NCBI GenBank assembly: GCA_951406725.2
Contig: OX597820.1
Span: forward strand, 35,898,001-35,962,000
Direction of reading: 5' to 3'
Length of the DNA stretch: 64,000 bases
Source of the DNA: Octopus vulgaris
Lineage: Eukaryota
The translations under genes and the position numbers were made by a program. This document shows, in pieces, positions 23,936-50,170 of this stretch; position 1 is the first letter of the stretch, and each line of letters opens with the position of its first letter. The notes under the pieces are model-generated. The model worked only from the letters and a program-made list of their open reading frames with translations, was not told where the DNA came from and ran no database searches.

Positions 23936-23942
23936 CAGTAAA

Positions 23943-24498
23943 TGCCCTGACGCAGTACCAGGCAGTGGCTCTCATGGCTTCTGATCTTAACTGATTGGAA
24001 GTGTTATCATGTACATTGTTTTGTCTTGGTATAAAAGATGGGCTACAGCAAATATTCTGCTCAATACCACAGATTTGCTTGTCAGTTGTTTGACCTTAAC
24101 CAGTTGAGCATGTCCCTTAGTGGCTGACGATATGTGCATCTCTGATCACGAGCAGAAGTAGTGGGGGAGCATCATAGCCATGTGTTGAGAGGGATTCTTT
24201 GGGGTTTGAATAGTTCACCTCTGGAAACATGGGTGGTTCTTTCAACATCCTTAAACAACCCTTATTCAGGGACCGTTTGAGCGGGATGGGCTACTCAACC
24301 TGAAGAAAATTCTAACTGGGCCCCACCTGCAAGGTCATGTGCTGTTTATCTTGATATGAGATCACCATGTCGCGCACATATGGTTGTGATGCATGTGCCT
24401 GGTGTACCTTTATCAGACGGGTAGTCATGATGGGTATATTGGGCTTCGTATATTTTATCCCAGTGTCACTTTGATGGCATGAACTGCTCTCTCACTCA
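23943..24498 (+). mobile_element. 556-bp TAA-embedded non-coding element, copy 1
   Basis: TGCCCTGA...CTCACTCA; same length as copies at 47694 and 49236 and near-identical in sequence; (TAA)n on both sides. Confidence 0.9.
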
Positions 24499-24524
24499 AT
24501 AATAATAATAATAATAATAATAAT

Positions 24525-24737
24525 AATTTCTACAAAAAGCACAAGGCCTAAAAATTGCGTAGTGGGGACTAGTTGATTGCATCGACCCAGGTGTTTCAAA
24601 GGTAATTAACTTATCGACCTCGAAAGGATGAAAGGCAAAGTTGACCTCGGTAGTATTTGAAATCAGAACCTGAAGACGGACGAAAAGCCGCTAAGCATTT
24701 CACCGTGTGCTAACGATTCTGTCAGCTCACTGCCTTT
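24525..24737 (-). mobile_element. SINE family B, tail type 2
   Basis: Family B lying between (TAA)n tracts. Confidence 0.85.
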
Positions 24738-24764
24738 AATAATAATAATAATAATAATAATAAC

Positions 24765-24796
<32 letters not shown>

Positions 24797-24800
24797 CAAC

Positions 24801-24832
<32 letters not shown>

Positions 24833-24844
24833 CGATAATAAAAC

Positions 24845-24899
<55 letters not shown>

Positions 24900-24920
24900 T
24901 AATAATAATAATAATAAGAA

Positions 24921-24951
<31 letters not shown>

Positions 24952-24956
24952 AAGAA

Positions 24957-25010
<54 letters not shown>

Positions 25011-25649
25011 CAACAACAACAACACAAAACTTTAATATCTACAACTTCCGTGAATACCTATCCTTTCCTTTCTCCCGGAGTATTCAAAAATGTAAACATC
25101 CTATTTATTGCAAAAACACTACAGTCTTCTCTGATCGGACATACGAATGATAATCTCTAGAAAATTTTAAAACTTTAATATCTACAATTTTGTGTGAAAA
25201 TTTTATCTTTCCTCTCTCACTGACTATCCGAATATGTAAACATACCTCTTATTGCAACAACACAATTAAATGCACGATAAAAAATAATTTTAAAAATTAA
25301 GGAGGTAAGCACCTGCTAATTTATACAAACTGCATTATTACAAAAACTGTAAACCACAACTAAAATTTTTTAAAAGAAAGAAAAATTTTTTTACAAAAAT
25401 TCATAAATTCAAAAATTGAACGATGTGAACATCTTATATATTTTTATTATTATTTCTATCAGTAATTAAAAATAGAAGGAGGTGATTTGGTTCTTTTCAA
25501 GGCCAAGGTCAGCGCTCACATTGATCGCTAGTAGTAGTAAACACATTTGATATCTGCTGACACCAAGGGTGTGGTAATAAAACTGAAGCACCTAATGGTG
25601 ACAGTGTTGCATCCGACAGGCTCAGAGACTCCAGCCGTCTGTTGTTATC

Positions 25650-25807
25650 CTGCAAGGGACCAGCACTCGCAGCGTAAATTGAACAAACAAATTAATGCTG
25701 TGTTCATGGAGTGTTACTACCTGAACAACCATGTAGACGAAAATGGTGTTCATCTTAGGGGATACCGACAACGTATGTATGATCGATGGATAGAAAGAGG
25801 TTTTTAG
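25650..25807 (+). pseudogene. R4/Dong-like ORF N-terminal fragment
   Basis: RKLNKQINAVFMECYYLNN...RGYRQRMYDRW resembles the KW..E.N..VMECY...GYR.RM...W N-terminal block of Dong/R4 ORFs (compare KWTREDNKEVLAAFY in the 29574-29909 ORF). Confidence 0.55.
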
Positions 25808-25864
25808 ACTCCACATTCGAGTTACCTCTATTTCCAGGTCTTTGCGCTTTCAAAGTTTCTCCGT

Positions 25865-26038
25865 TTTTCTTTTTTTTTTCTCGAGAAACAGTCATCTGTT
25901 GGTATTGATACATCGATTAGAAAGCATTTTTTTCTTGGTGATCTCTGATAACAACATCCGGACTATTGGCGTTAATTTCTCTATCTGTGTGAATTGACAT
26001 ATCCTATAACATGGTTGCTTTTTCATTTTCTGTCACCT
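25865..26038 (-). pseudogene. Dong-like RLE endonuclease fragment (family C)
   Basis: Minus frame DMSIHTDREINANSPDVVIRDHQEKKCFLIDVSIP, homologous to IQTDRKIDANRPDIIL...CLLIDMTVP. Confidence 0.75.
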
Positions 26039-26103
<65 letters not shown>

Positions 26104-26104
<1 letters not shown>

Positions 26105-29100
26105 TATGTTTGACTTTTGCTTTATATTTGTACAAGTTGGCTCCAAGTCTCACCCAGAGACCTCAAGAGACAACAGGGTTGGAAGTTCATGTTGTTGTTA
26201 TGCCTAGTGTGCCATATATTTGGGGGGTGGGGTGTTGTACTAATGAATATCTAAAAAAAAAAAATTTTTTTTTTTTTTAAACCGAAAATTATGTTTGTTT
26301 TAAACCTTGAGATTACATAGAAAGTATTTTGCGTAGGATATGAGCAGTTCCCATGAGCACTATCTTTTGAATTTCTGCCATTTTTGGGTTTCCTGGTATC
26401 TGAGTTAGGTAGCTATCTGCCCCTTTTGCTATCATTCCCAGGGCACCTATGACAACAGGTATTGTTTTAGTCTTCAGCTTCCACATTTTGCTGATTTCTA
26501 TTTCAGGATCTTTATATTTGCTCAGTTTTTGGTAGGTCTTGACAGATACGTTTGTATCGATTGGGACAGTCATATCAATGAGGAGGCATGTTCTTTGTTT
26601 GAAATCTTTCAATATGATGTCTGGCCTATTTGCATCTATCTTTCTGTCAGTTTGAATGGCGAAGTTCCAGAGGAGTGAGATGTGGTCATTTTCAAGCACT
26701 GGGGGTGGTTTGTGTTCCCACCAGTTTTTTTCATGGGGCAAATCCAGGTTTTTACAGATTACCCAGTGAATATATTGTGCAGCTCTATCGTGCCTGTTGA
26801 GATACTCTGTAGGCGCTAGAAGACTGCACTTGGAGACCACATGGTCAATGGTTTCATTTTGTTGCTTGCATACACGACACGTTGGACTGCTTCTGATCTT
26901 TAATATGTTGGCCTGGTAGTTTCTTGTTGGTAGGCATTGATCTTGAGCTGCTATGATAAACCCCTCTGTTTCAGATTTTAAGCCAGAGGCCATTAGCCAT
27001 TGATGGGTCAGGGCTTTGTCAACATCTGCATTATTTGCTCTCTTTGGGTATTTGCCATAGAGAGGTTTTTCTTGCCATTTATCATTTAGAATATCTAAGG
27101 CCGCAGATTTAGCACGGGTTTTCATGCGCTTAGCTTTTTCTGTGCCTGTTTCTTGTATGTCTATCTCTAATTCCGGAATTTGTTGTATTCGGAATTCACT
27201 TAGATATTCCTTTGCCTGTTTTGTTACTGAGTATGATGCTTTCTTGTTTTCATGTTTTGAGACAAGTTTTAACATCCAGTCCTCAGAGTTTTTCAGGTAG
27301 GTGTCTAGGCCAATTGTAGCAATCTTCATTGTTATTGCCAGTTGTAAAAGTCCGCGGCCTCCCTCTTTTCTTGGCAGATAAAGTCGTTCTGTATCTGCCT
27401 TAGGGTGGTGCATTCTATGCATTGTCAACAGTTTTCGTATTTTTCTGTCAAAATTACATATTTCAGTAATTGACCAGTTAACGATACTGAAACTGTAAGT
27501 CACGACTGGTATGGCTAATGCATTGATCGCTTCGATCCTGTTTCTCGCATTCAGCTCTGTCTTGAGTATTGCTCTTACTCTGCGATAGCATTCTCACCTG
27601 ATCCTTTCCTTCATCTCTGAATGCCTTATTCCTTCTCCTTCAATTACCCCTAGATACTTGTAGTTCTCTGCTGGGTCTAATTCTTTTATGACATTCTGCT
27701 GGTCAAGGTTAACGTTAGATGTTTCTGTCATTTTTCCTTTGATAAAGGTAGCTTTTGCGCATTTATCGAGGCCAAATTGCATTCTGATGTCATCACTGAA
27801 TTGTTTGACAATCGCTAGTAAGCCCTTGAGTTGTTGGTCATTTTTTGCAAAGAGCTTTAAATCATCCATGTAAATGAGATGATTTATATTTTTATCAAAC
27901 ATTTTATATCCGTACTGCGCATCATTGAGCAGTTTTGAGAGAGGTATTAAGGCTAAACAGAAGAGGAGCGGTGATAGTGAGTCACCCTGGAAAATGCCAC
28001 ATGAAATTTTTACATCACCAGCATTTAGAGATTCATTGTCACTGTTCAAAGTTAGTGTGGTTCTCCATGATCTCATACTTACAGACAAAAAGTTTCGCAG
28101 AGCAGGTGCTATCTTATACATTTCTAGGCATTTATTAATCCAGCTATGTGGTAGGCTATCAAAAGCCTTTTTATAGTCTATCCAGGCTATTGATAAGTTT
28201 TTGTGTCGTTTGTGACAATCTTCTAAGATAATCTTATTGATGAGTAGTTGATCTTTACAACCGTAGGATCCACGTCTACATCCTTTCTGTTCATTAGGGA
28301 ATATGCTGCTGTCTGTCAAAAAACTATAGGTATACTCCGTCAGGACAGATGTTAGTGTTTTATACATAGTTGTTAAGCAGGTTATGGGTCTATAGTTTTT
28401 GGGTTCATTTGTTTCTTCACTTTTTGGAAGCAGGAATGTTAACCCATTAACTAGCCAAGGAGGCATCCTACTAGGGTGTTGCAAAACATCATTGTAAAGT
28501 TCTGCTAGCAGTTCATGGCTCTCTGGGAAGGCATTCAACCAAAAGTTAGGGATTTTATCCTTTCCTGGAGACTTCCATTTGCTTGACCTCCTGAGAGCAG
28601 ATCTTATATCTTCTACCTTGACACCCTCCCACTTTTGCTCTTCTAAGGAGTCCAGTTCTTTAGATATTCTATCAATCCAGGGGCCTTTTTGCTGTGTGTT
28701 TTTTCTTCTGCCCAAATTTTATTCCAAAATCCCTGCACTTCTTCTTTTGATGGTACAGACTTTACAGTAACTGTTGTTTTTCCTATCTTCCTGTAAAAAT
28801 GTTTGGGATTATTTTTGAACATGTTGTTGTCCCTGTAGAATCTAATACGCTTTTCATACCTCGCTATGCGGGCAGCTTTAGCAGATACCTTTTGCTTGAT
28901 GGTTTCTATGGTGGCATCAATATCAAGTATAGTTTTCATATTATATTTTTTCATTAGTTTTGGGGTTTTTGCAGGTTTGGTAGTCTTATGAACCTTAAGG
29001 TTTTTCAAATATTCAATGTCAGATCTAAATAGTTTAATTTGTTGTTGCAAACGCTCTTGCCAAGAAGGCTTTTTGTGGAAATGTTGCCGTTTTCTAATCT

Positions 29101-30050
29101 TTTCACCACATAGGATCGTTGAGATTTTCGCGGATGCATAGTATAGGTGGTTGAGATCTGTGATATCAACATCATTAGCTGAAATTATATCCTTAAGTGC
29201 AAGCCGGATTTTACCAATTATTTTCATATTTTGGTTAGATTTGCGTATTTTAGGGAGTGTATCACGTTCATCCATACTGGTTTCTTTAATTTTCATCCAT
29301 TCAATCATGATTTGACTTTTTAGCTCATGTAGTTCTGTCGGGTCAATATTTGTGTGACTTTCTTCATCTATTTGATGTTCATCTGTCTTAGTGTTTATAT
29401 TTTGTTCAGGGAGTATTTCACTTTGCCTATCACTTATACTAACTCTTTCAATCCTTACTTCGTTTGTATTAGCTCTGAGCTGGTCTATAATTATTTCCTC
29501 TGTATTATCTTCTTTAGCTGCAGCTTCGTTCATTCTATCCGTTACTGCTTGTTTAATTTGATCAATCTCTACTTCAGTCAGTAATTTTTTTTTTTATAAT
29601 GTTTCTTCTGACGTTGGCAAGTTTGTTACTGTCTATGTAGGGTCTTACTTCAGGGTGTTTCTGTCTCCAGTTTATGTAGGTTTGTATAGTGTTCGATTTA
29701 TCTGTGGGGAAATATATGGCATGATAGAAGGCTGCAAGAACTTCTTTATTATCTTCCCTAGTCCATTTTTCCTTCTTTTTCTTTTGAGTGTTTGGTGACG
29801 AGCATGGATGGCCATCTGTTGGAATATTCCAGTTGCGGGGTACGTCCAGCTCCTGTGTGTCGGGAAGATTTGATCCAGTAGCTGATTTTTCAATCAGACT
29901 TTGGTTCAATTTTCGGGTACGTGGTCTTTTGTAATCCGCGCAATGACCAATGCGGTTTATTGTTTGATTTGTTGACCTTGAAGCATGACGAGCTTCGACT
30001 CTTACATTAAGAGACGGATCTGTCAGTTTAGGATTTTCTGCACGTAAACA

Positions 30051-30053
<3 letters not shown>
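26104..30053 (-). mobile_element. Near full-length R4/Dong-clade non-LTR retrotransposon (family A) inserted in (TAA)n
   Basis: Single long ORF remnant with RT and C-terminal RLE; about 210-bp 3' UTR ending ...AAACATAG(AAT)n; (TAA)n on both flanks. Confidence 0.95.
26313..30053 (-). pseudogene. Dong/R4 polyprotein: RT, CCHC knuckle, PD-(D/E)XK restriction-like endonuclease; three lesions
   Basis: Motifs YRPITCL, EQKG, IDYKKAFDS, GIFQGDSLSPLLF, YMDD, YKYLG, CRVC..ETIDHVVSKC, RHD, RPD..ID..P..K..KY. Frameshifts near 29590 (A-run) and 28680 (C-run); in-frame TGA at 27594-27596. Confidence 0.93.
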
Positions 30054-30108
<55 letters not shown>

Positions 30109-30127
30109 CATCATTATTATTATTATT

Positions 30128-30192
<65 letters not shown>

Positions 30193-30227
30193 TATCATCA
30201 TCATCATCATCATTATTATTATTATCA

Positions 30228-31335
30228 TTGCCTTTGCACAGCTTCTAACGCTGGAGATGTACTACAGTGTCAGCTGTTCACTACCAGTGAACTAAGGTAA
30301 CACCTTATTTTTCCAGCACCTTCCGGAGTATTCGAGCGGTTCTAAGCTGTGCTGTTTTCTGTAAGTGCTCCACCCTTATTGCAGCCCCTATTTGTTCCAT
30401 GTACTCCTCGAGTTTTTATTCACTGTTCCTAGGTCTCCGACAATTATTGGTACCACTACCACCTTTTTCATCGACCACAACAGCTTTGCCTCCCAAGCTA
30501 ACCTGTCATACCTATCTAGTTTTCTTTCTTCTTTATTGCATACCTTGTTGTTACCTGGACATGCTATATCTATGATCCAGCATAGCTTACTTTCTTTCTC
30601 AATTAAAACTATCTCTGGCTTCCTATTTTCTATCTCATGGTCGCACTGAATCATAAAAATCGCACAGGATCTTTACCTTATCATTTCTGCGTTTGTTATG
30701 ACAGTTCTCAAGGATCATGCGATTGATTAAGAATTGGTCTTTGCATCCATGTAAGCTTCACCGGCATCCTCTTTGTTCAGTGGGGAAAATATCGTTCTGT
30801 TCTATAAAATTATGTTTTCTCCACGAGAATGGATGTTAAACTTTTGTACGTGGTAGACAGGCATGTTATAGGCCGATAGTTTGGGAGAAATTTGGTTTCT
30901 TTATTCTTCGAGAGAAGGTAAGTAATCAGGTGTTTTCGTAGGATCTCTCATAATTTCATTTAACAACTGAACTAACTCTTCGTGTGCGCACGGGAACGAT
31001 GCGAGCCAGAAAATTGATACTCTATCATTAGCAGGAAATTTCCACTTATGAGTCTTCGTGAGTGTCATCCTTAGGTCTGCTATTGTGATATCCTCTCGTG
31101 CTTGTTCTGACAAATTTTGATAGAATCTTTCTGTGCGTCTAACCCAGTCTGCATTTTCATTGTATGTCTTTTCATCACTCCAAATATTTTTCCAAAAGTT
31201 TTCGACATCTTCCATAGGAGGAGGAGGGGTTTTCAACGGTTATTTTCTCCTTCCCTATTTCTCTGTAGAATGTTTGCGCATTGGATGTGAACAGCTTATT
31301 TTGCTTGGAAAACTCGTTTCTCTTCTCAAATCTTC
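30228..31335 (-). mobile_element. Deleted and degenerate Dong-like element (family B)
   Basis: FWKNIW...KWKFPANDRVSIFWL, NYRPITCL, EQRGCR, KPEIVLI...IDIACP; 3' end matches 50171-50506; flanked by ATT/ATC repeats. Confidence 0.85.
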
Positions 31336-31358
31336 ATGTTCTTTATTATCATTATTAT

Positions 31359-31390
<32 letters not shown>

Positions 31391-31984
31391 CTGCTGCTGT
31401 TGTTATTGTCACTGTTGTTATACTACTACTACTATTACTATACATGCTTTAAACTACTTTTATTCGAATATTTAATTAAGCGTGGGATTGTCATTTTCGC
31501 TAATGACTCAGAGAAAGAGAACAAGGATGTCAAAGTGAGGACGATACCGCTGAAGGAATTTCCTTTTTCCCACACTGCATTCAGCACCACTTTCTAATTC
31601 AAAACAGGATGTTATATAATATACACAAATGAAAATGCTTCACTGAATATATATTGATTAGCATACGCTTGTCGCCAAAAATGCCGACACTTTTATTAAT
31701 GATAGAAATCGGTGCATCAAAACAATAAGAGAAACCATTTATAAATGTCACCAACAGAGTAAAAATATGTACGTGCACAGTATTGAAGCAAGTGAATAAT
31801 CGTATACGGTTGTAGCGTGAAAGATTTTGTAGACTGGATACCCTTCTTGTCGCCAACCCTTACTTATTGCCAACTAAAATAATATTTTACTATGTCCAGA
31901 CATTTTTCATGAAAGGTTGCAAGCAGAAAGTCAGACACTCCTACAAGGAAAGCAGACAGTAAAACACACAAACACATGTGCACG

Positions 31985-32025
<41 letters not shown>

Positions 32026-32143
32026 CACACATGTATGTATGTATGTATGTATGTATGCATGTATGTATGTATGTGTGTGTGTATGTATGTATGTATGTAT
32101 GTATGTATGTATGTATGTATGTATGTATGTATGTATATACATG

Positions 32144-32217
<74 letters not shown>

Positions 32218-32560
32218 TAGATGTGACTGTGAGGTAAGAACCCTGCTCCCAACAACATGGATCAGGATTCACTCCCTGCAGTCCTACTGCCTGGCACCTT
32301 GGGCAAGTTTCTTCTACTATAGCCTCAGGCCGACCAAAGCATTGTGAGTGGGATTGGCAGGCGGAAACTGAAAGAAGCCCGTCGCATATATGTATATATA
32401 TATATATACATATGTATATATCTATGTGTGAGTGTCTTTGTGTCTGTGTTGGTCCCCCACCACCGTTTGATAACCGGTGTTGGTGTGTTTATGTCTCTGT
32501 GACCTAGCGGTTCAGCAAAAATGACTTATAGAATAAGTACTACGCCTTAAAAAAAATAAG
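32218..32560 (+). mobile_element. Degenerate SINE family A
   Basis: ggcaccttgggcaag...ggaaactgaaagaagcccgtcg. Confidence 0.8.
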
Positions 32561-33486
32561 TCAACAAGTAGAAAAGCACTCGATCAGCTAAGAGAGTAAA
32601 AGTAATCTTATGATAAAATACCACAAATCTTGTTAAATACAGTTACCTAGGGTTTCTTGGTCGAAATAATTTATTCTACCTTGTTTACAGCTTCATAAAT
32701 GGTGGAATGAATTATTTTTCAACCAGGAAACTCTGGGTACCAGATTTGTGTTTTTTTTTATTATAAGATTACATGTATATGAGTGTGTGATAGAGAGAGT
32801 AAATGATTGCATGTGCATGTATACATGTATGTATATATGTATGTGCATTGCATATAAGCTTGGATTTGGCTGTGCAGTCAAGGAGTTTGCCTTGCAACTT
32901 CATGGTTTTAAGTTCCATTCCACTGCTCTGCCCCAAATGAGAAAGTATCCTCTATTGTAGCTTTAATTCACCCAAAGCCTTGCTACTGAAATTTGGTACG
33001 ATGAAATTTCTGTGGAAGCATATTGGTCAGAAGAATCGTTTCCTGTTTGAGGCTGACGGATTTAATATTTCACTCGACGGTACCATTGGTGGACTAGAGT
33101 TTGTTGTATATATACAGACATACAAACACATACATACAGACAAACAAAAATACCCTATTGATGATGTTGAAATTCCAATGAAGGAGCTTTGAATCTAGGT
33201 TACAAACTGGGTCTTTCTCTATTGGCAAGAAACATTGAAATAAAACTGAATAACGACATACATGCATACATGCATACATACATACATACATACATACATA
33301 CATACATACATACATACAAACATACATACATATGGACATATGTAAAAACATATACACATACAACAGACACATGTACATACACACATACATATGCACATAC
33401 GTAAACATGCATACACACATACATACACAAATACATACACATGATAGTTGTCTACTCCTTATGCAGAGTTTGACCACCTCTTGTAC

Positions 33487-33935
33487 TTACTCCTGAGATC
33501 CATCATGGCGTCTGATGTGGCCTTTTAAACCAGACAATGTATTGAAAAGACACCCACATCGATTGCATATCTGATTTCGACCACCAAGAGCTGCAGTTAA
33601 GTTCTGGCCTTTGTGGATCTTAAAATGTCTTTTGAGGCCTCCGTTAGCCTTGCAGACCTTATAGCATTCACGGCATTGAAAGATATGCACAGATATATAG
33701 ACAGAGTAGTTGGTGGAGGTTCGTTTTTCATGGGTCTGCAAATGAGATTTAAGCCCAGCAAAAAAAAAGAAAGAAAGACATGGTCTGTCACAAACTGTAC
33801 ACAAAAAAGGTTACTGAGATTCACCTTCTCGATCGCAACATTCTTCTTTAAATCTTTCTTGAGTCTTGCATTTGTCATCCTGGCCTAGGCAAAAGCTTTA
33901 ACTCTACTCCACACTTTCGTTTGCCATCGAGCTCA
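33487..33935 (-). pseudogene. RTE-like LINE C-terminus carrying three C2H2 zinc fingers (disrupted)
   Basis: RWQTKVWSRVKAFA*ARMTNARLKKDLKK, then after a frameshift CTVC..GLKSHLQTH, CREC..GLKRHFKIH, CNRC..GLKGHIRRH. Confidence 0.7.
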
Positions 33936-34632
33936 TACATACACGCACATAGTTATAAAGATTTTATCCTATTTTTGAATTGTAAATTTAACCGGAATAT
34001 ATTCAGTGCTGAATTTATTCTGAATAAACACGTGTACTAAGATGCAATTTGAAAAACCCACCTCTTTCATAGATATATAAGAGTGAACGACTCTATGTAC
34101 TATGCTGGATACATTTGATGTTCGCCTGGTTTGTTGATTTTTTGTTGTTGTTTTTTTATGTGTGTGAAATTGTGTTCTATTATATGCACGATTGACGAGT
34201 ACATCTAAGACGCCGACCTGTATAACATCAGAAAGTGGTCCGTGGTAGATTGCAGAAGACCACGCACATTTTTTGACTAAATACTTAAAATGGCTACAGC
34301 TATATGTAGATTTTGTGTTACGCTGTGAGAAATATCACGACCTGAACATCTTGGACATCACCAGTTGCACGCCGAACAAAATGCTTTTCGTCCATCTTTG
34401 CGTTATGTGTTCAAATACCGCTGAGGTCCACTTTGCGGGTCGATAAATTTAAGTGCCAGTTAAACATTGGGATTGTGTCTACAGTGGAAAAGATTATTGT
34501 TGCTGTTGTTGTTTCCATGTCGTTTTGTAGAAAATTCTTTACAAGCAACATATAGACGAAGAATAAATACAATACGCAAAAACAATTGACTTCAGGATTT
34601 GGTCCCAGAATGTAAATGAGCACGATGAATAT

Positions 34633-34830
34633 ATTAGTTTCAAATTTTGACACAAAGCCCGCAATTTCGGGTGAGTGAGCTAAGTCGATTACTCCGATCC
34701 CAGTGTTCAGCTGGTACTTTATTTCATCGACCCCTGAGAAGATGAAAGGCAAAATCCACATTGACGGAATTTGAACTCAGAACGTGAAGACCGACGAAAT
34801 GCTACTTAGCAATTTGCTCGGCTTCTGCCA
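34633..34830 (-). mobile_element. SINE family B, tail type 3
   Basis: Family B core with tttcaaattttgacacaaagc tail. Confidence 0.8.
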
Positions 34831-35353
34831 TTTCACCAACAAGACCTGACAATCTACTTTCCCGCTATTTTACAAACATTATTTTTTTTTCGACATTTTT
34901 AATATTTCCATGTTGTTTTATTGAAAATCCCATAAAACAAACACAAACACAGGTAAGAAGAATAAAGCACAATACATGGGAACGAAGGTGTGAAAACAAC
35001 ATCGACCGGACGTCGCTTGACGCCTTCTTTCAATTTTTTTGTTTTTTTTTAACATTCTAGCTTTATATTTACTCGCCTATCACTCTACTCTCTCTCTCCC
35101 TCTCTTTCTCTCTTTCTCACTCCTCGTTTATAAAAAGCAGTTGTATTTTCTCTATTATACTAAAAGCAGTAATCAGTGTGAAATTTCCGACTAAATAGCT
35201 ATAATTATCAACGCGTACATTAGGGTGTTGTTATGTGTGCGTGCGTGTGTGCATGTATGTGTGTGTGTGTGTGTGTGATAACTAAACAAGGACAGAGAAT
35301 AAGTTTATTTTTAGACAGGTGTGTGAATGCATGTATATATGTGCGTATTTACG

Positions 35354-35384
<31 letters not shown>

Positions 35385-38091: not shown

Positions 38092-38158
<67 letters not shown>

Positions 38159-38234
38159 TACACAAGTAGGTAACTCTTACTGTGAGTATGTCTGTGTCAA
38201 TGTGAAACAGGGTATGTGTCGATGTTATATACAG

Positions 38235-38386
38235 GAGCAGGCGTGGCAGAGTGTGGTTAGAAGCTTGCTTCCCAACCACATGGTTCCGTGTTCAGTACCA
38301 CTGCGAGGCACCTTGGGCAAGTGTCTTCAGGCCGACCAAAGCCTTGGGAGTGGATTTGGTAGACGGAAACTGAAAGAAGTCTGTTG

Positions 38387-38421
<35 letters not shown>

Positions 38422-38609
38422 ATCCTCACCATCGCTTGACGACCGATGTTGGTGTGTTTACGTCCCCGTAACTTACTGGTTCGGCCAAAAACTCTGATAG
38501 AATAAGTACTAGATTTACAAAGAATAAGTCCTGGGTCGAATTGTTCGACTAAAGGCGGTGCTCCAGCATGGCTACAGTCAAATCACTGAAACAAGTAAAA
38601 GAATAAAAT
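38235..38609 (+). mobile_element. SINE family A
   Basis: Full head-to-tail match to family A. Confidence 0.88.
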
Positions 38610-38644
38610 AATATGTATATATGTGGCATATTTTGTAATGTTGT

Positions 38645-38877
38645 TATTTCTTTACTGCCTACAAGGGGCTAAACACAGAGAGGACAAACAAGCACAGACA
38701 AAAGGATTAAGTCGATTCTATCGACACCAGTGCGTAGCTGGTACTTTATTTAATCGACCCCGAAAGGATGAAATGCAAAGTCGACTTCGGCGGGATTTGA
38801 ACTCAGAACGTAACGGCAGTCGAAATACGGTACGCATTTCGCCCGGCGTGCCAACGTTTCTGCCAGCTCGCCGCCTT
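38645..38877 (-). mobile_element. Full-length SINE family B, tail type 1
   Basis: 16-bp TSD tattttgtaatgttgt at 38629-38644 and 38879-38894. Confidence 0.93.
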
Positions 38878-39351
38878 GTATTTTGTAATGTTGTGTGTAG
38901 TGAAATGCGTGTGTGTGTGTAGGCGTGTGTGTGTGGGTGTGTGTTTGTGTGTATGTGTGGAGGTGTGGTGGGAGGTTGGTAGGGTTAGGTGAGTGAACTT
39001 GCTAAAGCAGGAGTGTATGTGTCTTTGTGCGGATGTATATTGCTACAGGAAGATTGGTAATAATTTATCCACTGGGACTAATTTTTTGCGGTGCAAAGAT
39101 GTGTTGCTGCTCACGCAGACACCAGGATGTTGGAGAACCGACCTGGGACTATCGTAGGCGTGGTGTAATGATGCATGATTAGGCGAGTGGAAGTCGTGGG
39201 CTACAATTTATTAAATCATGCATGCATCATTAGATCGACGAGTGACCGCTGGTGGCTTCGCTAATGAGCCTTATGCGTTTGATACAGAGTTTTCGGACAA
39301 TGCAAAAATTATTTCCGTGCTATTGCCTTCCGTCGGATGTTTTTTATATTT

Positions 39352-39417
39352 ATGATGATGATGATGATGATGATGATGACGACGACGACGATAACGATGA
39401 TGATGATGATGATGTTG

Positions 39418-39448
<31 letters not shown>

Positions 39449-39680
39449 TGATGATGATGATGAGGATGATGATGATGATGACGATGATGACGATGATGAC
39501 GATGATGGTGACGATGGTGGTGGTGGTAGTGGTGGTGATAGTGGTGGTGGTGGTGGTGGTGGTGGTGGTGGTGGTGGTGGTGGTGGTGGTGGTGGTGGTG
39601 GTGGTGGTGGTTGTGATGATGATGGTGGCGATGATGATGACGACGGCGACGATGATTATTGTTGTTGTTGTTGTTATTAT
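39352..39680. repeat. (GAT/GAC)n-(GGT)n compound trinucleotide tract
   Basis: Direct reading of the sequence. Confidence 0.93.
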
Positions 39681-39681
39681 T

Positions 39682-39892
39682 AAGGCGGTGAGCTGGCAAA
39701 ATCGTTAGCACGCCGGGCGAAATGTTTAGCGGTATTTCGTCTATTGCTACGTTCTGAGTTCAAATTCTGCCGAGTTCGACTTTGCCTTTCGTCCTCTCGA
39801 GGTCGATAAATTAAGTACCAGTAACACACTGGTATCCGTGTAATCGACTCATCCTCTTCCACAAACATAACTACCCTTGTGACAATATTTGA

Positions 39893-39954
<62 letters not shown>

Positions 39955-40170
39955 AGGTGACGAGCTGACATAATCGTTAGCACGCCTGGCAAAATGCTTC
40001 GCAGCATTTCGTCTGTCTTTACGTTCTGAGTTCAAATTCCGCCGAGGTCGACTTTGCCTTTCATCCTTTTGGGTCGATAAATCAAGTACCGTTGCGTGCT
40101 GAGGTTGATGTAACCGACTGGCCCCCTCCCCACAAATTTCAGGCCTTGTACCTGAAAGTGGAAAGGATTA
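39682..40170 (+). mobile_element. Two SINE family B copies separated by (TAG)n
   Basis: Heads at about 39682 and 39953; the second copy ends in (ATT)n. Confidence 0.88.
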
Positions 40171-40320
40171 TTATTATTATTATTATTTTCATCAGATAAC
40201 AACTTATCAATTATAGCCATTTCTGAGAGAGAGAGAGGAGGGAAGAGGGGATAAATCTAATCTAGCATTTGACAGATACTTTATTTATTGACCCTGAGAG
40301 AATATATATATATATACATA

Positions 40321-41030
40321 CAGTGATCCCTCGCTACTTCGCGGTTCAACTATCGCGGATTCACGACTTCGCGGATTTTTAAAATATATATGTGTGAATA
40401 TAAAGTTAATCCAAACAAGAAAGCACAAAAAAACATAACAACGCGAGGACGTGGAACAAATGTAGTATTATTAGACGCTCAGGAAAGAAGGAAAGAAGGA
40501 TGGTTTAACGTTTCGAGCGGAGCTCTTCGTCGGAAACATAAGAGAAGGAAAGATCCAGAGAAGGGAAGACAGAGGAAAAAAATTGCCAACGGTACACACG
40601 CGGTCACATTTTGAATACGTAAAAATACATGTAAATAAAACTCATGTGGGATGCGTATGGAAGGAAGTGTGATAAAAAGAGAACTGATGAAAAATTTTTG
40701 TACTAAAATTAAGAGCGGTTAAGAGTTTCAATTAAAAGATCCATAGAGTCGATGTATTTTTTTTTTATATATAAATAGTATATAAGGTATATAATACAGT
40801 TCGAGGAAGTCCACTTTTCACGGCCAGTATATAAGGTATTAAATACTTTATATGCCATTTATATATTTAAAAAAAAACACATCGATCTCTATGGATCTTT
40901 TAATTGGAACTCTTAAACGCTCTTAATTTTAGTACAAAAAAAAAAATTTATCAGTTCTGTTTTTCTGACACTTCCTTTCATAAGTATCCCATATGGGTTT
41001 TATTTACAGGAATTTTTATGTATATTTATA
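40321..41030. mobile_element. pogo/Tigger-like TIR plus fold-back MITE body, interrupted by a Penelope-like end (40405-40615, minus strand)
   Basis: TA then CAGTGATCCCTCGCTACTTCGCGG; about 180-bp imperfect inverted arms at 40620-40798 / 40836-41020. Confidence 0.6.
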
Positions 41031-41427
41031 TTTATATTTCATAAATATTTTTTTTAATATTCATATATGTCGATATGTATTAATATATGTATGCGCATTT
41101 TAAGTCGAATTTATAACTGTATGAGTATGAATGCCTAATCTGAGTATAGTAGATAGTACTTTTCACAAATCGAAGTATTTAACAAATTACATTTATATTT
41201 ATAGTTTTTTGGAGCATGCAATATATATTGGGATAAGGAGTCGTGGTAAGTTAGATGAAAAGATAAATAAAAATAAATAAATAAATAAAAAATAAAAAAA
41301 AAATAATAAAATAAAATAAAAATAAAAATAAAAAAATTAAAAAAAAAAAAATATTATAAATATATATATATATATATATATATAGGTAAATATTCTCATA
41401 TATACACATATGTATAGTATCTACACA

Positions 41428-41463
<36 letters not shown>

Positions 41464-41792
41464 CATATATATACACGATATACATACATATCTACATACA
41501 CATAATACAGCCACATATACAAATTTATATATGAAATACCTTCTACATACACACGTATATATGCATAAATGCATATAACACATGTTATATCACAACACAT
41601 ACATATATACACAGAAAAATATATATTCATACACACATATCACAAAACAATGTCTATATACACATATACACTATATACATACACATACACATACACAAAA
41701 AAAAAAAAAACACCAACAATATACACATGTGTGACATATACATATACACATAATACAATCATGTGTTATAATACCTACACACACACACATAC

Positions 41793-41831
<39 letters not shown>

Positions 41832-42172
41832 CACATTCTATATTTTTTATCTATTATTACTTTGATCTTGACGCTGCAAGCTGGCAAATCAAGTAATAAA
41901 TGTAAATAAAATATAATTATTTATATATATATATATATATATTTCTGATAGTACGCATTCAGAAATCTTAGAGTAATTTCTCTATATATATAATTTCTAT
42001 ATAATAAATAATACTCTGCTATGATTAGTATACTTACTGGTTACGAATCACGGACCTAATATATATATATATATGTATGTGTGTGTATGTGTAGGTATGT
42101 ATAGGTACACATGTATGTTGTGTATGTATGTGTGTATATGTATGTATGTGACACATGTGTATATATGTATGC

Positions 42173-42211
<39 letters not shown>

Positions 42212-42812
42212 CATATGTAGGGTGTATGTATATATATGTAAATATTGTATATGGGATAGGGTTGTGTGTGCATGAGTGTATGTGGATGAATATATATTTT
42301 TCTGTGTATATATGTATGTGTGTCGTGGGTATATATATATGTGTGTATGTGATGCATGGGTGGTGTATGCATATATACGTGTGTGTAGTGTGGGTATTTG
42401 CATTGCATGTGTATAAATTTTATATGTGGGGGTGTATGTATGTGTATGTAGATATGTATGTATATGTGTTATGTATATGTGTTTTTTTTTTTTTTTTTGT
42501 GTATATATATGTGTGTAGATACTATACATAGTGTATGGTATAGTGAGCCATACCTATTCTCCCCCTTTTTATATATATATTTTTATATATATATTTTATA
42601 TATATTTTTATTTTTTATTATTTTTTTTTTTTTTTATTTTTTTTTTATTATTTTATTTTTTTTTTATTTATCTATTCTTTCATCAACTATGACTCTTCTT
42701 TTTAGTGCTAATGTATAATGCTACATTCTAAATAGCTTCTAGAATTTACCTCTATTAATAAATTAATTTTACTCTTATATTATACTTATTACTGTGGTTA
42801 ACCCATCACCGG

Positions 42813-42866
<54 letters not shown>

Positions 42867-43059
42867 CATACTTATATATATATATATATATACATACATA
42901 CTTATATATATATACATACATACATATATACACATATATATATACACATACACTCACACACCCACATACACAGAGTCGCATTTCTCTGTTCGTATTTACG
43001 TATGTTTGAAGGCAATCAGACCAAATTTTCATCATTTCGAGCTACTAACCCAATGAGTA

Positions 43060-43185
43060 TTTCTACCAAATTTACTGAAAATCCGTTCGGCCATTTTCCA
43101 GAAAATCCGTTCAGCCGTTTCCACAGACAATCAGACAAAGACTAGAAATTACACTCTGCTTTCACTTCCGCGCGCAGGGTAAAAA
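43060..43185 (+). mobile_element. Helentron-associated (HINE/DINE-1-like) 3' remnant
   Basis: accaaatttactgaaaatccgttc...acagac motif and terminal hairpin ACTCTGC..GCAGGGT followed by an A-run. Confidence 0.45.
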
Positions 43186-43340
43186 AGAGGGAAAGAATTT
43201 ATTCAAATTTCAACACAAGCTATAAGAGGGAGAATACAGCTACAAAGACCCCTAAAATTAAAAACACTACGATAAAAATATTTTTCTTGTTAATTGTTAA
43301 TTCAACATTGGAAAGGATTGAAATAAAAACAATGTAGAAG

Positions 43341-43405
43341 GGCGCAGGAATGGTTGTGTGGTAAGTAGCTTGCTACCAACCACATACTGAAAGAAACCCG
43401 TCGTA

Positions 43406-43476
<71 letters not shown>

Positions 43477-43710
43477 ATGTATATGTATGTGTATGTATTT
43501 GTGCGTCTGTGTTTGTCCCCCAACATCGCTTGACAGCCGATGCTGGTGTGTTTACGTCCCCGTAACTTAGCGGTTCGGCAAAAGAGACCTGTAGAATAAG
43601 TACTAGGCTTACAAAGAATTAGTCGTGGGGTCGATTTGCTCGACTAAAGACGGTGCTCCAGCATGCCCGCAGTCAAATGACTGAAACAAGTAAAAGAGTA
43701 AAAGAGTAAA
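43341..43710 (+). mobile_element. SINE family A (internal deletion in head)
   Basis: Family A head start, expanded (TA)n, complete tail. Confidence 0.88.
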
Positions 43711-45571
43711 ATGAAAGAATTTATCTGAAAACCCAATATAAAACAAATTATTTTGGACCTTGACTCGTCATCTGGTATGCTTCCGCTCATTGAAAACATT
43801 ATGACCTATACGTTCTTTAATTCTGAAAAAAATTTCCGACATCCTCCAAACAGCTAATGTCTTTTTATATAGCGCATCCTGCTTTCTACTCGTCACTCAG
43901 TTCAGAGATCACAACACCCCACAAATAGGATGCTACCACCAAGGTTAAGAACCTCTGATATGGAGAGTCAGACGACAACGACGATAATGGTAATGATGGA
44001 CGTGACCATGATCATGATGATGAAAATGATGTATAATAATGATGTATAATAATCGTGGTAATGGTGGTGGTGGTGGTGGTGGTGGAGGAAATGATGATGA
44101 TGATGATGATGATGACAACGACGGTGGTGGTGGCAGTGACTATTACGATGTTCTGTTTGTGTCAGTGTGTAAAACCAATAATTATTTTTCAAGTGCTAGT
44201 TACTGCAATTGTCATTGACGACAACCCTGAACTTAAGCCAACCAAGGCAGCCATGACATGTTCCATACAAACAAAATTGATTTATTTTATTCCAGTTTAC
44301 TTGTTTTAGTGGTTTTTTTATATATTTATCTATTTATTTAATTTAGTCGTTTATTTGTTTGCTTGTTGGAAGCTTTCCAATCTATTTAATACAGATCAAA
44401 AGAAATACAGAACTTTGTTAAGCTGACAGCCTCTCTAGTACAATTAAAGTTCACGACTGTTAATTAGCTTAACTTCCTAACAGTCACCCCAACGTAACAA
44501 TACAACAATAAATAAGAAAATATATAAATATTCAACGTAAAGAAAAGAAGACAACAAAATATCAGCTATCGTCTGCCTTTGGAAATGTGCCGTCAGTTTG
44601 AGGTGGGAAAGGCAGTGGTTTTCCAGCATTGTACTGAATGTATATATATTTTTAAAATTGTTATTTCCATTGATGTTACTTGCTTTGTACTCGTTGTCAA
44701 AATGATGAGTTTTTTTGTGTTTTTTTTTTTTTGCCATTTCAAGTTTAAGTTCAAATTCATATTTCTGCGATGAATTTTGCTTACTTCTAACTTTTCTTTT
44801 CTTTCATTTCACCTACACAACCACCACTACAACCTAGTGTTAAGCTGTTTACATCATTCGGCGAACAATTATTTATTTTCTTTGGAAGGAAATGTCCAAG
44901 CTAGGAAGAAAATACTGGCATATATTAAACTTTTAAGGCCCAAGAAGGCCGAAATGTGCCTGTTGGGACAATGTTTACCTCGTTCTGATATATTCTGCGT
45001 TATTAAGACAGTTACGAAGAAGTGATTTTTCTCTAATGTAAAAACCACAGCATTGTACCTTTCATGATTGTTTGGTACACAGATAGCCATTTTAACTTAA
45101 TGCTGTTTCAGTTGCATTCACCGGGTTTTATTCAGCACAACAATCTTTCTGTAAAATTATTGAAAGTATTGTTCATTGTTCTCTTTACACTGGAGAGTAT
45201 AAATTTCGTCTAGGCATGTGACAACTGAGTACAAATCATTGACAAGACCCAAAATGGTCGAAACATGTCTGACGTTCTCATGAGTCAGTTACAACAGGGA
45301 CCATGGTCGCCTCGCTCTGATAAATATTGCTTTTCATACATGCCTATGAGGAGATTTTCTTTTAGACAAAAACCATAGCATCACACCTTTCAATAGTGCA
45401 TATACATTTAATATGAAACGCAGATGGAGATTATAATTTTGATATAACTTTGAAATTTTTACGATTTTATTAATCTTGTGAAAGGCCATTAATCAGTTCT
45501 CTTGATGTGATAATATAGCGAGTAGTGTTCTGTCACAGACATCGTATCATATCGGTGACCAAGACTCAAAT

Positions 45572-46562
45572 CTAATCAAGGAGGTTGCAGTCTGGACAGT
45601 TAGGTGGCCAGATGTTAGGGGTGATGTGGTCGCAGAAATTGTCTGACAGCCATGACAGGGTTCTCCTGCTTGTGGGGCATGGTACAGAGTCCTGTTGCCA
45701 GACATAGAGTCCTCCAGCAGTCCTCTTCTTGACTCAGAGCAGCACTACCTCCTCTAGGCACTTAATGTAAGCCTCTATGTTGAATCTGCGGCTGCGTGGG
45801 AAGATGAATAGAGGCATAACATAGCCATCACCAGTGATCACTCCAAACACCATAATGTTGACTGGATGCTTGATCTTTATCATTCTCGGTACATGTTTTG
45901 GGGATACGGCAAGCCAACGGTTGTCCTGTATGTCCACCATCTGATCCTCGCAGAAATTTTTCTCGTCTAAGAAAAACCAAAGCATGTTCGGTCGGAGGGG
46001 ATGCTTAAGTTTGTTCAAAAGCTTCATAGCATAGTCTTTCCTCTTGTTCTTGATGGCTTGGGGTAAAAATTGGCACTTTCTCATCTTGTATGAGGAATTC
46101 CGAATGTCTTCATTCATCACCTGCTTCATAAAAAAAAAAACTTAAACACTCCCATGTAACTGGCGATGGACCTGATTGACTTGGAGGGATCATTGTCAAT
46201 CTGCCTGGACCTCACCAAGAAATTCAGGAGTTCTTTTCTTATCAGAACGATCTGAGTATGTTTTCCGAGCTACCGCACCTTCGTAATCACCATTAAACTC
46301 ATCAAAGTCTTTCCGAATCCTCTGCACTGTCCTCAGACTGACGCCGAAACACTCTGAAATATTCGTATTGGAGCTTCCAGCGCGAATGTCAAACAGTACA
46401 GCATGTCGTTTCCAAATTTCTGGCGGAGTGAATTGCGTCATGGTGCTGTTTTTCTCACAGACGGTACCCAACTGACCCTACTATACTGAGTAACTGACAA
46501 AATCAAAAACAATGTGCATGCACGAAATAAAAAATATAAAATAGCGACAATTTACCCATCGT
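45572..46562 (-). mobile_element. DD37D (maT) Tc1/mariner transposon remnant
   Basis: HTH-like N-terminus (GVSLRTVQRIRK), WFFLDEKNF, MVFGVI, and QQD followed 37 residues later by D (…WPPNCPDCNLLD); frameshifted, one TIR-like end near 46540-46562. Confidence 0.88.
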
Positions 46563-46594
46563 ATGTATGTGTGTGTGTATATATATATATAATA

Positions 46595-46683
<89 letters not shown>

Positions 46684-46698
46684 ATATATGTGTGTGTG

Positions 46699-46754
<56 letters not shown>

Positions 46755-46828
46755 CATATATATATATATATGCATATACGTATATATACATATATATATA
46801 TATTAATTAATATGAATATATATATCTA

Positions 46829-46874
<46 letters not shown>

Positions 46875-47133
46875 TATATTCATGCATACATATATACATA
46901 CATGCATATTTACATATATGATTTTATCAGTTATAAAATATATTTCTGTATGCATCAATGTATATATGCACCGTCCCTATCATCGTATTTACGTTTGCTT
47001 TTGCAATGCTGTTATGGGTTCGATGAGCCTTGAGACATTATTCTACATATTCTCTCTTTCCCCTCCCTTTTCGCATTCTCTCATTTTCTCTCTTCTCCCC
47101 ATCTATCTCTCTCTCCCTCTCTGTTTCTCTCTA

Positions 47134-47192
<59 letters not shown>

Positions 47193-47572
47193 ATTCTAGT
47201 TTATAAATCTCTCACACTTTCGCATTCCCTAACATGTAAACTATTGTTAACGTCTGTTCGGTCAACTGAGTGAAAATGCCATACGCAAATGTTATAGTGT
47301 AAAGAAAAAAGAATATTTGTTTATCAAGCTATGCACAACTTAACAGCCACTCTAACCTTATTAATTCTTTCAACTAGTTACGTAAATTAATATTCTCAAG
47401 CAGAAATAACCTTCAGAATCAGGAGGCTTTAAAAAAATAAGAAGGAAAAAAAAAGTAGGAGAGTAATTTTTCTCTTTCTCCGAATTCTAAACATTCCGAT
47501 AGGAGGTCAATGGAAAACAATTAAATAAATAAATAAACAACGACAACAACATCAACAGCAACAAAATAAGTA

Positions 47573-47630
<58 letters not shown>

Positions 47631-47693
47631 GACAACAACAACAACAACAACAATAATAATAATAATAATAATAATAGCAATAATAATAATAAA

Positions 47694-48249
47694 TGCCCTG
47701 ATGCAGTACCAGGCAGTGGCTCTCATGGCTTCTGATCTTAACTGATTGGAAGTGTTATCATGTACATTGGTTTGTCTTGGTATAAAAGATGGGCTACAGC
47801 AAATATTATGCCCAATACTACAGATTTGCTTGTCAGTTGTTTGACCATAACCAGTTGAGCATGTCCCTTAGTGGCTGACGATATGTGCATCTCTGATCAC
47901 GAGCAGAAGTAGTGGGGGAGCATCATAGCCATGTGTTGAGAGGGATTCTTTGGGGTTTGAATAGTTCACCTCAGGAAACATCGGTGATTCTTTCAACATC
48001 CTTAAACAACCCTTATTCAGGGACCGTTTGAGCGGGATGGGCTACTCAACCTGAAGAAAATTCTAACTGGGCCCCACCTGCAAGGTCATGCGCTGTTTAT
48101 CTTGATATGAGATCACCATGTCGCGCACATATGGTTGTGATGCATGTGCCCGGTGTACCCTTATCAGACGGGTAGTCATGATGGGTATATTGGGCTTCGT
48201 ATATTTTACCCCAGTGTCACTTTGATGGCATGCACTGCTCTCTCACTCA
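47694..48249 (+). mobile_element. 556-bp TAA-embedded non-coding element, copy 2
   Basis: Same ends and length as copies 1 and 3. Confidence 0.9.
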
Positions 48250-48269
48250 ATAATAATAATAATAATGAT

Positions 48270-48707
48270 AGTTTCAGATATTGGCACAAGGCCAGCAATT
48301 TCTGAGACGGGGTATGTCGATTAAATCAACCCCAGAGCTCAACTGGTACTTAATTTATCGACCTCGAAAGGAATGAAAGGCGAAGTCGATCTCGGCGGAG
48401 TTTTCACTCAGAACATAAGGGCAAACGAAATGCCACTAAGTAGTTTGCCTGGCGTGAGAACGATTCTTCTAACTCACCGCCTTAATTGTAATAATCTTTT
48501 CTACTAACGACACAAAGTCTGAAAATTTTGGGGAGGAGACTAGACGATTACATCGACCCCAGTGTTTTACAGGTACTTAAATTATCGACCCCAAAAGGGT
48601 GAAAGGCAAAGTCGACCTCGGTGGAATATGAACTTAGATCGTGCAGACGGACGAACTGCTGCTAAGTATTTTGCCCACCGTGCTAACGATTCTGTCAGCT
48701 CACCGCC

Positions 48708-48774
<67 letters not shown>

Positions 48775-49166
48775 TAATAATAACAATAACAATAATACAG
48801 CATTATCGCTGTGAAAACAACATCCATTCATGAATTTATTATTATTTTTTTTAATACATATTTTACCTATAAATTTGCATGTGTAATCTGGGAATACATA
48901 CAATGAGCTTCTCTGCCCTAGGTGTACGGAAAATACTCGGCGAGAAATGGAACAAAATTTGAAGAAAGAAGGGGAAAAAACAATAATAATAAAGGATTTC
49001 AAATTTTGGCACAAGGCCAGCAAGTTCGGGAGGGGAGGCTAGTCGATTACATCGACCCCAGTGCTCAACTGGTACTTATTTAATCTATCCCGAAAAGATA
49101 ACTTCAGCGGAATTTGAAGTCAGAACGTAAAACTGGCATGCTAACGATTCTGTCAACTCGCCACCT

Positions 49167-49167
<1 letters not shown>
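48270..49167 (-). mobile_element. Three SINE family B copies (48270-48484, 48493-48709, 48995-49167)
   Basis: All on the minus strand, interleaved with (TAA)n. Confidence 0.88.
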
Positions 49168-49235
<68 letters not shown>

Positions 49236-49791
49236 TGCCCTGATGCAGTACCAGGCAGTGGCTCTCATGGCTTCTGATCTTAACTGATTGGAAGTGTTAT
49301 CATGTACATTGTTTTGTCTTGGTATAAAAGATGGGCTACAGCAAATATTCTGCTCAATACCACAGATTTGCTTGTCAGTTGTTTGACCTTAACCAGTTGA
49401 GCATGTCCCTTAGTGGCTGACGATATGTGCATCTCTGATCACGAGCAGAAGTAGTGGGGGAGCATCATAGCCATGTGTTGAGAGGGATTCTTTGGGGTTT
49501 GAATAGTTCACCTCTGGAAACATGGGTGGTTCTTTCAACATCCTTAAACAACCCTTATTCAGGGACCGTTTGAGCGGGATGGGTTACTCGATCTGAAGAA
49601 AATTCTAACTGGGCTCCACCTGCAAGGTCATGTGCTGTTTATCTTGATAAGAGATCACCATGTCGCGCACATATGGTTGTGATGCATGTGCCTGGTGTAC
49701 CCTTATCAGACGGGTAGTCATGATGGGTATACTGGGCTTCGTATATTTTACCCCAGTGTCACTTTGATGGCATGCTCTGCTCGCTCACTCA
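49236..49791 (+). mobile_element. 556-bp TAA-embedded non-coding element, copy 3
   Basis: Same ends and length as copies 1 and 2. Confidence 0.9.
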
Positions 49792-50167: not shown

Positions 50168-50170
50168 CAT

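Follow-up and report, generated by a model that had tools for sequence, protein, structure and literature searches.

A 64,000-nt stretch of Octopus vulgaris DNA (GCA_951406725.2, OX597820.1, positions 35,898,001 to 35,962,000 of the forward strand; genome of 2.8 Gb in 227 contigs), referred to here as the window, contains three copies of a non-coding element of 556 bp set into (TAA)n microsatellites. We consider it likely that the element is a high-copy, (TAA)n-preferring repeat whose RNA is copied by target-primed reverse transcription (TPRT) with the enzyme of a Dong/R4-type long interspersed nuclear element (LINE). It would be a composite passenger resembling short interspersed nuclear elements (SINEs), closest to EhSINE1 of Entamoeba and apparently without a tail shared with its carrier. 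The copies, their flanks, and their parts (located on copy 2) are as follows.

23871-23933, plus strand: (TAA)n upstream of copy 1 (target)
23935-23940, plus strand: 5'-junction duplication before copy 1 that repeats element nt 10-15, probably of the template-jump type; other copies are similar
23943-24498, plus strand: element copy 1, 556 bp, with a probable first base A at 23942
24499-24527, plus strand: (TAA)n downstream of copy 1 (tail or target)
47654-47692, plus strand: (TAA)n upstream of copy 2
47694-48249, plus strand: element copy 2, 556 bp
47694-47794, plus strand: head of copy 2, nt 1-101, with a predicted hairpin at nt 36-59
47795-47963, plus strand: body of copy 2, nt 102-270 (also 24044-24212 and 49337-49505), common at 75-93% to an older family of ~480 bp resembling MITEs (miniature inverted-repeat transposable elements)
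48148-48193, plus strand: predicted 3' hairpin of copy 2, nt 455-500, loop GGGTA, a candidate recognition signal
48250-48265, plus strand: (TAA)n downstream of copy 2
49169-49234, plus strand: (TAA)n upstream of copy 3
49236-49791, plus strand: element copy 3, 556 bp
49792-49816, plus strand: (TAA)n downstream of copy 3

A preliminary description of this DNA had reported three 556-bp copies with identical ends and (TAA)n on both sides, and this account holds: internal insertions and deletions are absent, mean column identity is 97% (in an alignment that included flanks), and the sense-strand polarity of the repeats equals that of the Dong fragments in the window. The element is indeed non-coding, with no open reading frame (ORF) of at least 150 aa, and has neither a tRNA (ARAGORN, 0) nor an Rfam match at E<=10. 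The fixed length of 556 bp is true of full-length copies only, most copies anchored at the 3' end being 5'-truncated. The bases 'gcagtaaa' before copy 1, which had been taken for variable extra bases, are not random; GCAGTA repeats element nt 10-15. Of 90 copies that begin at nt 1, 51 have an ATAAA junction, and an A stands before TGCCC also after non-TAA duplications. Because an A precedes TGCCC at most junctions, the true 5' end, and with it the RNA start, probably includes one more A, one base earlier.

Insertion signature and target

Insertion signatures were read from 72 copies anchored at the 3' end (from 30 loci plus 40 stretches fetched out of the first 100 matches listed, all within the initial 17 Mb of one contig) and from 30 copies anchored at the 5' end, two pairs of which resemble segmental duplicates. 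The 3' end is fixed: among the 30 5'-anchored copies, 26 continue as far as nt 554-556, and a further 2, which have an internal deletion, reach nt 552. The 5' end of the 3'-anchored copies is ragged, with starts at nt 1-4 (25 copies), at nt 6-20 (9), and beyond nt 25 (38, at least 3 of which are internal deletions and not truncations), and many full-length copies carry a tandem duplication of the first 15-25 nt. The element thus has the fixed 3' end with a simple-repeat tail, the variable 5' truncation, and the 5'-junction duplications or template jumps of a non-autonomous retroposon without long terminal repeats (LTRs), and the combination of fixed 3' end, ragged 5' ends, and 5' duplications is the footprint of TPRT. 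Truncation polarity rules out the minus strand as the sense strand; the plus strand also folds better.

TAA lay upstream of 51 of the 72 copies, against 1,150 of 114,000 background positions (1.0%, in 400 kb of contiguous sequence), and was retained in 23 of the 38 copies that align only from beyond nt 25; the opposite polarity, TTA, was upstream of 1 of the 72. Downstream of 3'-complete matches, TAA followed in 146 of 159 and TTA in none. TAA is the insertion target, because a tail cannot account for the upstream repeats. With the fixed 3' end, the 5' truncation, and the upstream TAA in 51 of 72 copies, the earlier idea of a TAA-specific, non-autonomous family of TPRT type with a defined full-length 5' end is borne out. 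One copy (L076) sits inside (ATAC)n and brings its own TAA, and for this reason the element RNA probably carries an (AAU)n tail; another (L143) sits inside (GAA)n without a TAA tail. (GAA)n adjoins both element and Dong A copies (L143, L059, L296), which may reflect tolerance in the target or later change of the microsatellite. Of the 38 late starts, 13 lie within the AT-rich nt 75-129; microhomology to the TAA flank or transcription from a TATA-like word may be the cause.

Dong/R4-type LINEs as the probable carrier

The window also holds LINE sequences of Dong type, listed here with the 3'-untranslated-region (UTR) hairpin that is taken up below.

26104-30053, minus strand: Dong/R4-type LINE of family A, 5'-truncated, with stops and a frameshift; candidate carrier type
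50161-50505, plus strand: 3' fragment of Dong-type family B with a TAA-like tail
51291-51455, minus strand: fragment of a Dong-type family A 3' UTR, with TAA runs on either side
50419-50503 and 30231-30313: Dong 3'-UTR hairpin (families B, F, G, J), a candidate binding signal; also at L037, L191, L087, and L075

The long LINE has a reverse transcriptase domain (RVT_1, E 1.2e-28), followed at its C terminus by what we take to be a CCHC zinc knuckle and a PD..D..K nuclease motif. A single ORF with reverse transcriptase, these two C-terminal motifs as we label them, and the TAA target would place the neighbouring LINEs in the R4/Dong clade; a PDB search gave 0 matches. Open frames at four fetched Dong A loci span 1,314-1,319 aa with near-identical C-termini. 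One Dong A subfamily (L305-L308) appears very young, with dozens of equal-scoring copies and many frames longer than 1,200 aa; its 5' UTR is ~900 nt long and has microsatellite runs inside.

The junction phase AATAAT and the polarity are common to the element and the Dong-type families. After the end motif of the element, the phase AATAATAAT was the commonest (74 of 129 motif matches, many of which are unrelated sequence); it was found in 8 of 8 Dong A and 11 of 21 Dong C junctions, whereas in 5 of 10 cases the abundant tRNA SINE has ATTATT at its end. Full-length Dong A copies carry 5' tandem duplications of the same kind as the element. Target, polarity, and junction phase therefore equal those of Dong, as in a Dong/R4 passenger, and in Bombyx, Anopheles, and Biomphalaria Dong is described as TAA-targeting (PMC3812793). 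From 1.29 Mb of mostly element-centred loci, 488 sequences lying upstream of (AAT)n were clustered; the multi-member clusters traceable to a coding element were all Dong-type. Judged by the target and junction signatures, it is quite likely that the element is mobilised via a Dong/R4-type LINE. The preliminary description had called it a candidate Dong passenger: the same target, polarity, and junction phase stand, and it is from these that we infer the partnership itself. An apparent element/Dong A chimera (L199) alternates between the two sequences and was set aside as a probable assembly mosaic; long imperfect palindromes in the window (40615-41023 and 41276-42676) may, like it, be long-read assembly artefacts.

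Weighing the carrier and its alternatives

Several results weigh against carriage by a Dong/R4-type LINE. TAA was not directly upstream in 21 of the 72 3'-anchored copies, and in a few copies the 5' part is inverted (L112, L285, L047/L048), which is also compatible with Penelope-like enzymes. The 488 sequences upstream of (AAT)n included 161 singletons and one unassigned 2-member cluster, which leaves some room for another carrier. At two loci (L104, L195), a sense Dong coding fragment is fused directly to a truncated element, which fits template switching and is explained equally well by later deletion between neighbours. Comparison of the element with 17 clusters of Dong 3' UTRs (84 UTRs) gave best local scores of 14-20, at chance level; Dong profile hidden Markov models (HMMs) did not match it; and a covariance model of Dong families B, F, G, and J found no match on the three element copies at E<=10. 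Pairwise tests against 16 Dong representatives had z values averaging close to 0 (the 9/250 reached in one test of ten was not significant after correction), and the Dong A 5' UTR does not match the element. A genome pattern placing a Dong ORF end near the last bases of the element (short UTRs, one motif only) returned 2 matches, both of them element copies.

Nor did the Dong A ORF match the element. No 3' tail homologous to a Dong 3' UTR was thus found among the 17 clusters sampled, which extends the earlier remark that the 3' end is unlike the Dong 3' UTRs of the window. The label 'SIDE-like' does not survive: short internally deleted elements (SIDEs) are built from LINE 5' and 3' ends, and Dong 5' or 3' sequence was not detected in the element (Dong A 5' UTR and ORF; 17 3'-UTR clusters). 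A decayed Dong ORF end in nt 324-470, which had a colinear look, was rejected when it disappeared with profiles and correction; two top scores in the Dong ORF comparison were neighbouring element copies and were discarded.

It is possible, if rather doubtful, that the last ~100 nt come from an unsampled or extinct Dong lineage and that the hairpin at nt 455-500 is their binding signal, a reading that differs from ours only in how the RNA is recognised. An octopus annotation has 51 Dong-R4 families (PMC13282606, supplement), against the 17 clusters sampled here. In the 3' UTRs of Dong families B, F, G, and J there is a common hairpin that shows covariation and has a loop of NGGTA type, ~50 nt ahead of the tail (4 of 6 pairs show double-sided changes), and the element hairpin has a GGGTA loop ~75 nt before its tail, a likeness seen by eye only. 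However, homology to the Dong hairpin was rejected when neither nhmmer nor the covariance model (B, F, G, J) matched the element; the HMMs and the corrected pairwise tests agree, and none of the 72 3'-anchored copies runs on into a Dong ORF end.

That another carrier is at work, either a Penelope-like element or a LINE with an apurinic/apyrimidinic endonuclease (APE), with the landing in TAA brought about by pairing of the RNA tail, seems improbable. The inverted 5' parts and the L076 copy in (ATAC)n with its own TAA tail would suit such a carrier, but Dong C ends also form inverted junctions (L047/L048), and no hammerhead or other Rfam match was found. Moreover, nearly all copies have TAA of the same polarity on both sides and are not two-armed (TTA upstream in 1 of 72), and no such autonomous family appeared in the multi-member clusters upstream of (AAT)n. 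Far less probable still, and already largely refuted, is an origin of the element as the 3' part left over from a longer LINE or as a derivative of a DNA transposon. Nt 102-270 are common to the MITE-like family, but this piece lacks the MITE ends, the element has no terminal inverted repeats, and its one-sided truncation is unlike cut-and-paste; as for a LINE remnant, none of the copies continues beyond nt 1 into sequence that they have in common, and full-length copies abut TAA. A solo LTR, which the preliminary description had offered as its alternative and which the TG...CA ends and the TATA-like word at nt 88 recall, is refuted by the TPRT pattern (truncation confined to the 5' side while 3' ends stay intact, duplications at the 5' end, and a first base that is probably A) and by TAA-like sequence (with a few GAA/CAA variants) instead of an internal region directly after complete 5'-anchored copies, and fixed ends on both sides, target site duplications of 4-6 bp, and paired copies around gag-pol were not found.

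A possible mechanism and its bearing

With a Dong/R4-type LINE as carrier, a ~557-nt RNA ending in (AAU)n would be bound by Dong protein, the restriction-like endonuclease (RLE) would nick the (TTA)n strand, and the RNA tail would pair with the nick and prime the cDNA. Early stops in synthesis would yield truncated copies, and run-off at the RNA 5' end with a template jump would yield 5' duplications. Recognition would go via the (AAU)n tail, because no Dong sequence is detectable in the element tail, and would perhaps be aided by the shape of the hairpin at nt 455-500. We tentatively suggest, as one of several possibilities and short of an even chance, that Dong RLE retrotransposons mobilise RNAs in trans with a relaxed recognition like that of L1, through the (AAU)n tail alone or with the hairpin shape, and that a chimeric, part-DNA-transposon RNA without a small-RNA head or a LINE tail thereby gave rise to a microsatellite-specific family whose copies number tens of thousands.

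The closest counterpart, EhSINE1, has as its partner EhLINE1, which we take to be an R4-type carrier. Like the element, EhSINE1 of Entamoeba histolytica is 500-600 bp long and has no ORF, and it is described as having no known small-RNA head and an unknown polymerase (PMC2996970). In the same source, EhSINE1 has ~70 bp of its 3' end in common with EhLINE1, target duplications, and no fixed target, whereas the element shares no tail with the sampled Dong families and is microsatellite-specific. An R4-type carrier is named for the E. dispar pairs, EdSINE1 and R4-N1_ED with R4-1_ED (PMC3747384). The R2 SIDEs and R2/R1 hybrid SIDEs of Drosophila are likewise non-autonomous and target-specific, with TPRT junctions and 5' template jumps (PMC3414825); they are described there as rare and as carrying the 5' ribozyme of the carrier and a LINE 3' end, whereas the element has no detectable Dong parts, a body shared with a MITE-like family, and tens of thousands of copies. 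Dong of Bombyx, DongAg, and DongBg target TAA (PMC3812793; PMC3774820), and the target, polarity, and junction phase of the element match the Dong-type LINEs of this genome; Dong, unlike the element, is autonomous. Bombyx Dong is described as self-cleaving at its 5' end by a ribozyme like that of hepatitis delta virus (HDV) (PMC3774820). Alu and B1, which mammalian L1 mobilises with 'relaxed' recognition (PMC3747384), also have no LINE-derived tail and share only a simple-repeat 3' end. Alu, however, is transcribed by RNA polymerase III (pol III), is 7SL-derived, and combines poly(A) with an APE-type LINE, whereas the element would have an (AAU)n tail and a likely carrier with an RLE. By the definitions of SINEBase (PMC3531059), the element is SINE-like in being short (<700 bp), non-autonomous, and present in many copies, and it departs from SINEs in lacking a head that is at least 60% identical to tRNA, 5S, or 7SL across 60 nt.

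The published passengers of RLE LINEs that we found, EhSINE1 and the R2 SIDEs, contain part of the 3' end of their carrier; R2 is described as stringent. If Dong-like target and junctions without a Dong tail hold, the element would be a high-copy animal passenger and a natural test of how RLE LINEs choose their RNA. That choice matters for the evolution of retrotransposons and for gene-insertion tools of the R2 type, in which the RNA requirement is a main design limit. The element also shows a DNA-transposon fragment shared with the body of a retroposon. Should a matching Dong tail turn up, the element would be an ordinary, though uncatalogued, SINE-like family. A literature search found no description of the family (Repbase, Dfam, and the Zenodo library of PMC13282606 lay outside this search), and it may already be in repeat databases as an unclassified SINE.

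Copy number, age, and spread

An exact 22-base pattern of the 3' end plus tail had 13,423 matches in the genome, and one of the 5' end, also of 22 bases, had 6,365; the reversed control gave 0 in both cases. A DNA search returned 1,819 candidates, and the 40 that were scored all covered at least 545 of the 556 nt at 96-100%. Because the exact 3' pattern was present in only 10 of the 30 5'-anchored copies, the family probably comprises ~30,000-40,000 copies, by rough extrapolation. Divergence from the majority sequence was 1.0-12.7% with a median of 3.9% (58 of the 72 3'-anchored copies, with >150 aligned bases each), so that the family, previously called young, is so in part. Dominant variants in run X6 are unlike those in runs X1 and X10 (for example, ~93% versus 19% at 49486), which places the family in genomes of more than one kind; run X24 had almost no element sequence (11 reads), so that the organism labels attached to the runs do not amount to a list of species. 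Metagenome rows with small shares were left aside. Fragments of the element also form long tandem arrays with units of ~68, 24, and 19 bases (G000:C1:30148149-30149000; L017; L102).

Anatomy and origin of the parts

Searches of the head gave no tRNA (ARAGORN, 0) and no Rfam family at E<=10, 7SL being covered through Rfam only. A 5S-derived head, seen by eye, was rejected when the genome's own 5S proved not significant (84, 85, 311, and 251 of 1000 shuffles). U1 and U2 fared no better, the genome's own sequences being equalled by 134 and 150 of 300 shuffles, respectively, on the sense strand, and the element accordingly lacks the U1 or U2 head of SINEU.

Contigs aligned to the element depart recurrently at nt 105 and 270. 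An exact-pattern search for a family sharing the body found nothing; a 26-base motif of a second, MITE-like family had 743 genome matches. All 20 fetched loci of this second family contain part of nt 102-270 at 75-93%, and 19 contain most of it. Its copies are mostly ~80% identical to each other, and both terminal inverted repeats, 451-497 bp apart, were present at 8 of the 20 loci. By its sequence divergence, the MITE-like family is older than the element, and capture of nt 102-270 from the MITE is the likelier direction. The element itself is not a MITE: it has no terminal inverted repeats, its ends are not complementary, and the inverted repeats of the related MITE lie outside the common segment. 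In this ~480-bp family (L213-L232, e.g., the G000:C1:80697489 region), the inverted repeats begin CTGTGTAACA.

Folding and transcription of the RNA

The plus strand folds better than shuffles (z -2.48), as against z +1.03 for the minus strand. The hairpin at nt 455-500 has z -4.25 (-3.87 on the other strand), in a window chosen after seeing the fold. Pair-preserving transitions were commoner on the plus strand (0.027 versus 0.017, p 0.009; minus strand, p 0.97). This is weak evidence for strong constraint on the RNA structure, because base composition differs and the copies are not independent of one another. As to the 5' fold, the hairpin at nt 36-59 has high pairing probability in the predicted fold; the TGCC/GGCA stem first proposed appears only when nt 1-70 are folded alone. 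In the search for a ribozyme, no Rfam match, hammerhead included, was found at E<=10, and an HDV-like descriptor had zero matches in the element and zero in Dong A too, hence no positive control. Runs of four T occur at nt 77 and 511 of the sense strand, and no box B was seen; the one run presumed to be RNA consists of contigs only. Transcription by RNA polymerase II appears more likely than by pol III, because of these two runs and the lack of a small-RNA head.

Neighbouring tRNA-derived SINEs

A SINE of ~80 nt consisting of a tRNA part only, with an (AAT)n tail, often occurs as head-to-head inverted pairs with tails outward (L053:1334-1422, L052, L108, L231, L285); at L285 it is joined head to head with the element, and a 10-base word common to it and element nt 16-25 is probably due to chance. 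On the minus strand of the window, an abundant tRNA-derived SINE with an (ATT)n tail, often with (TTA)n at its 5' side, lies at 23660-23870, 24530-24736, 48270-48708, 49810-50165, and elsewhere, and its runs supply many of the TAA targets of Dong and the element.

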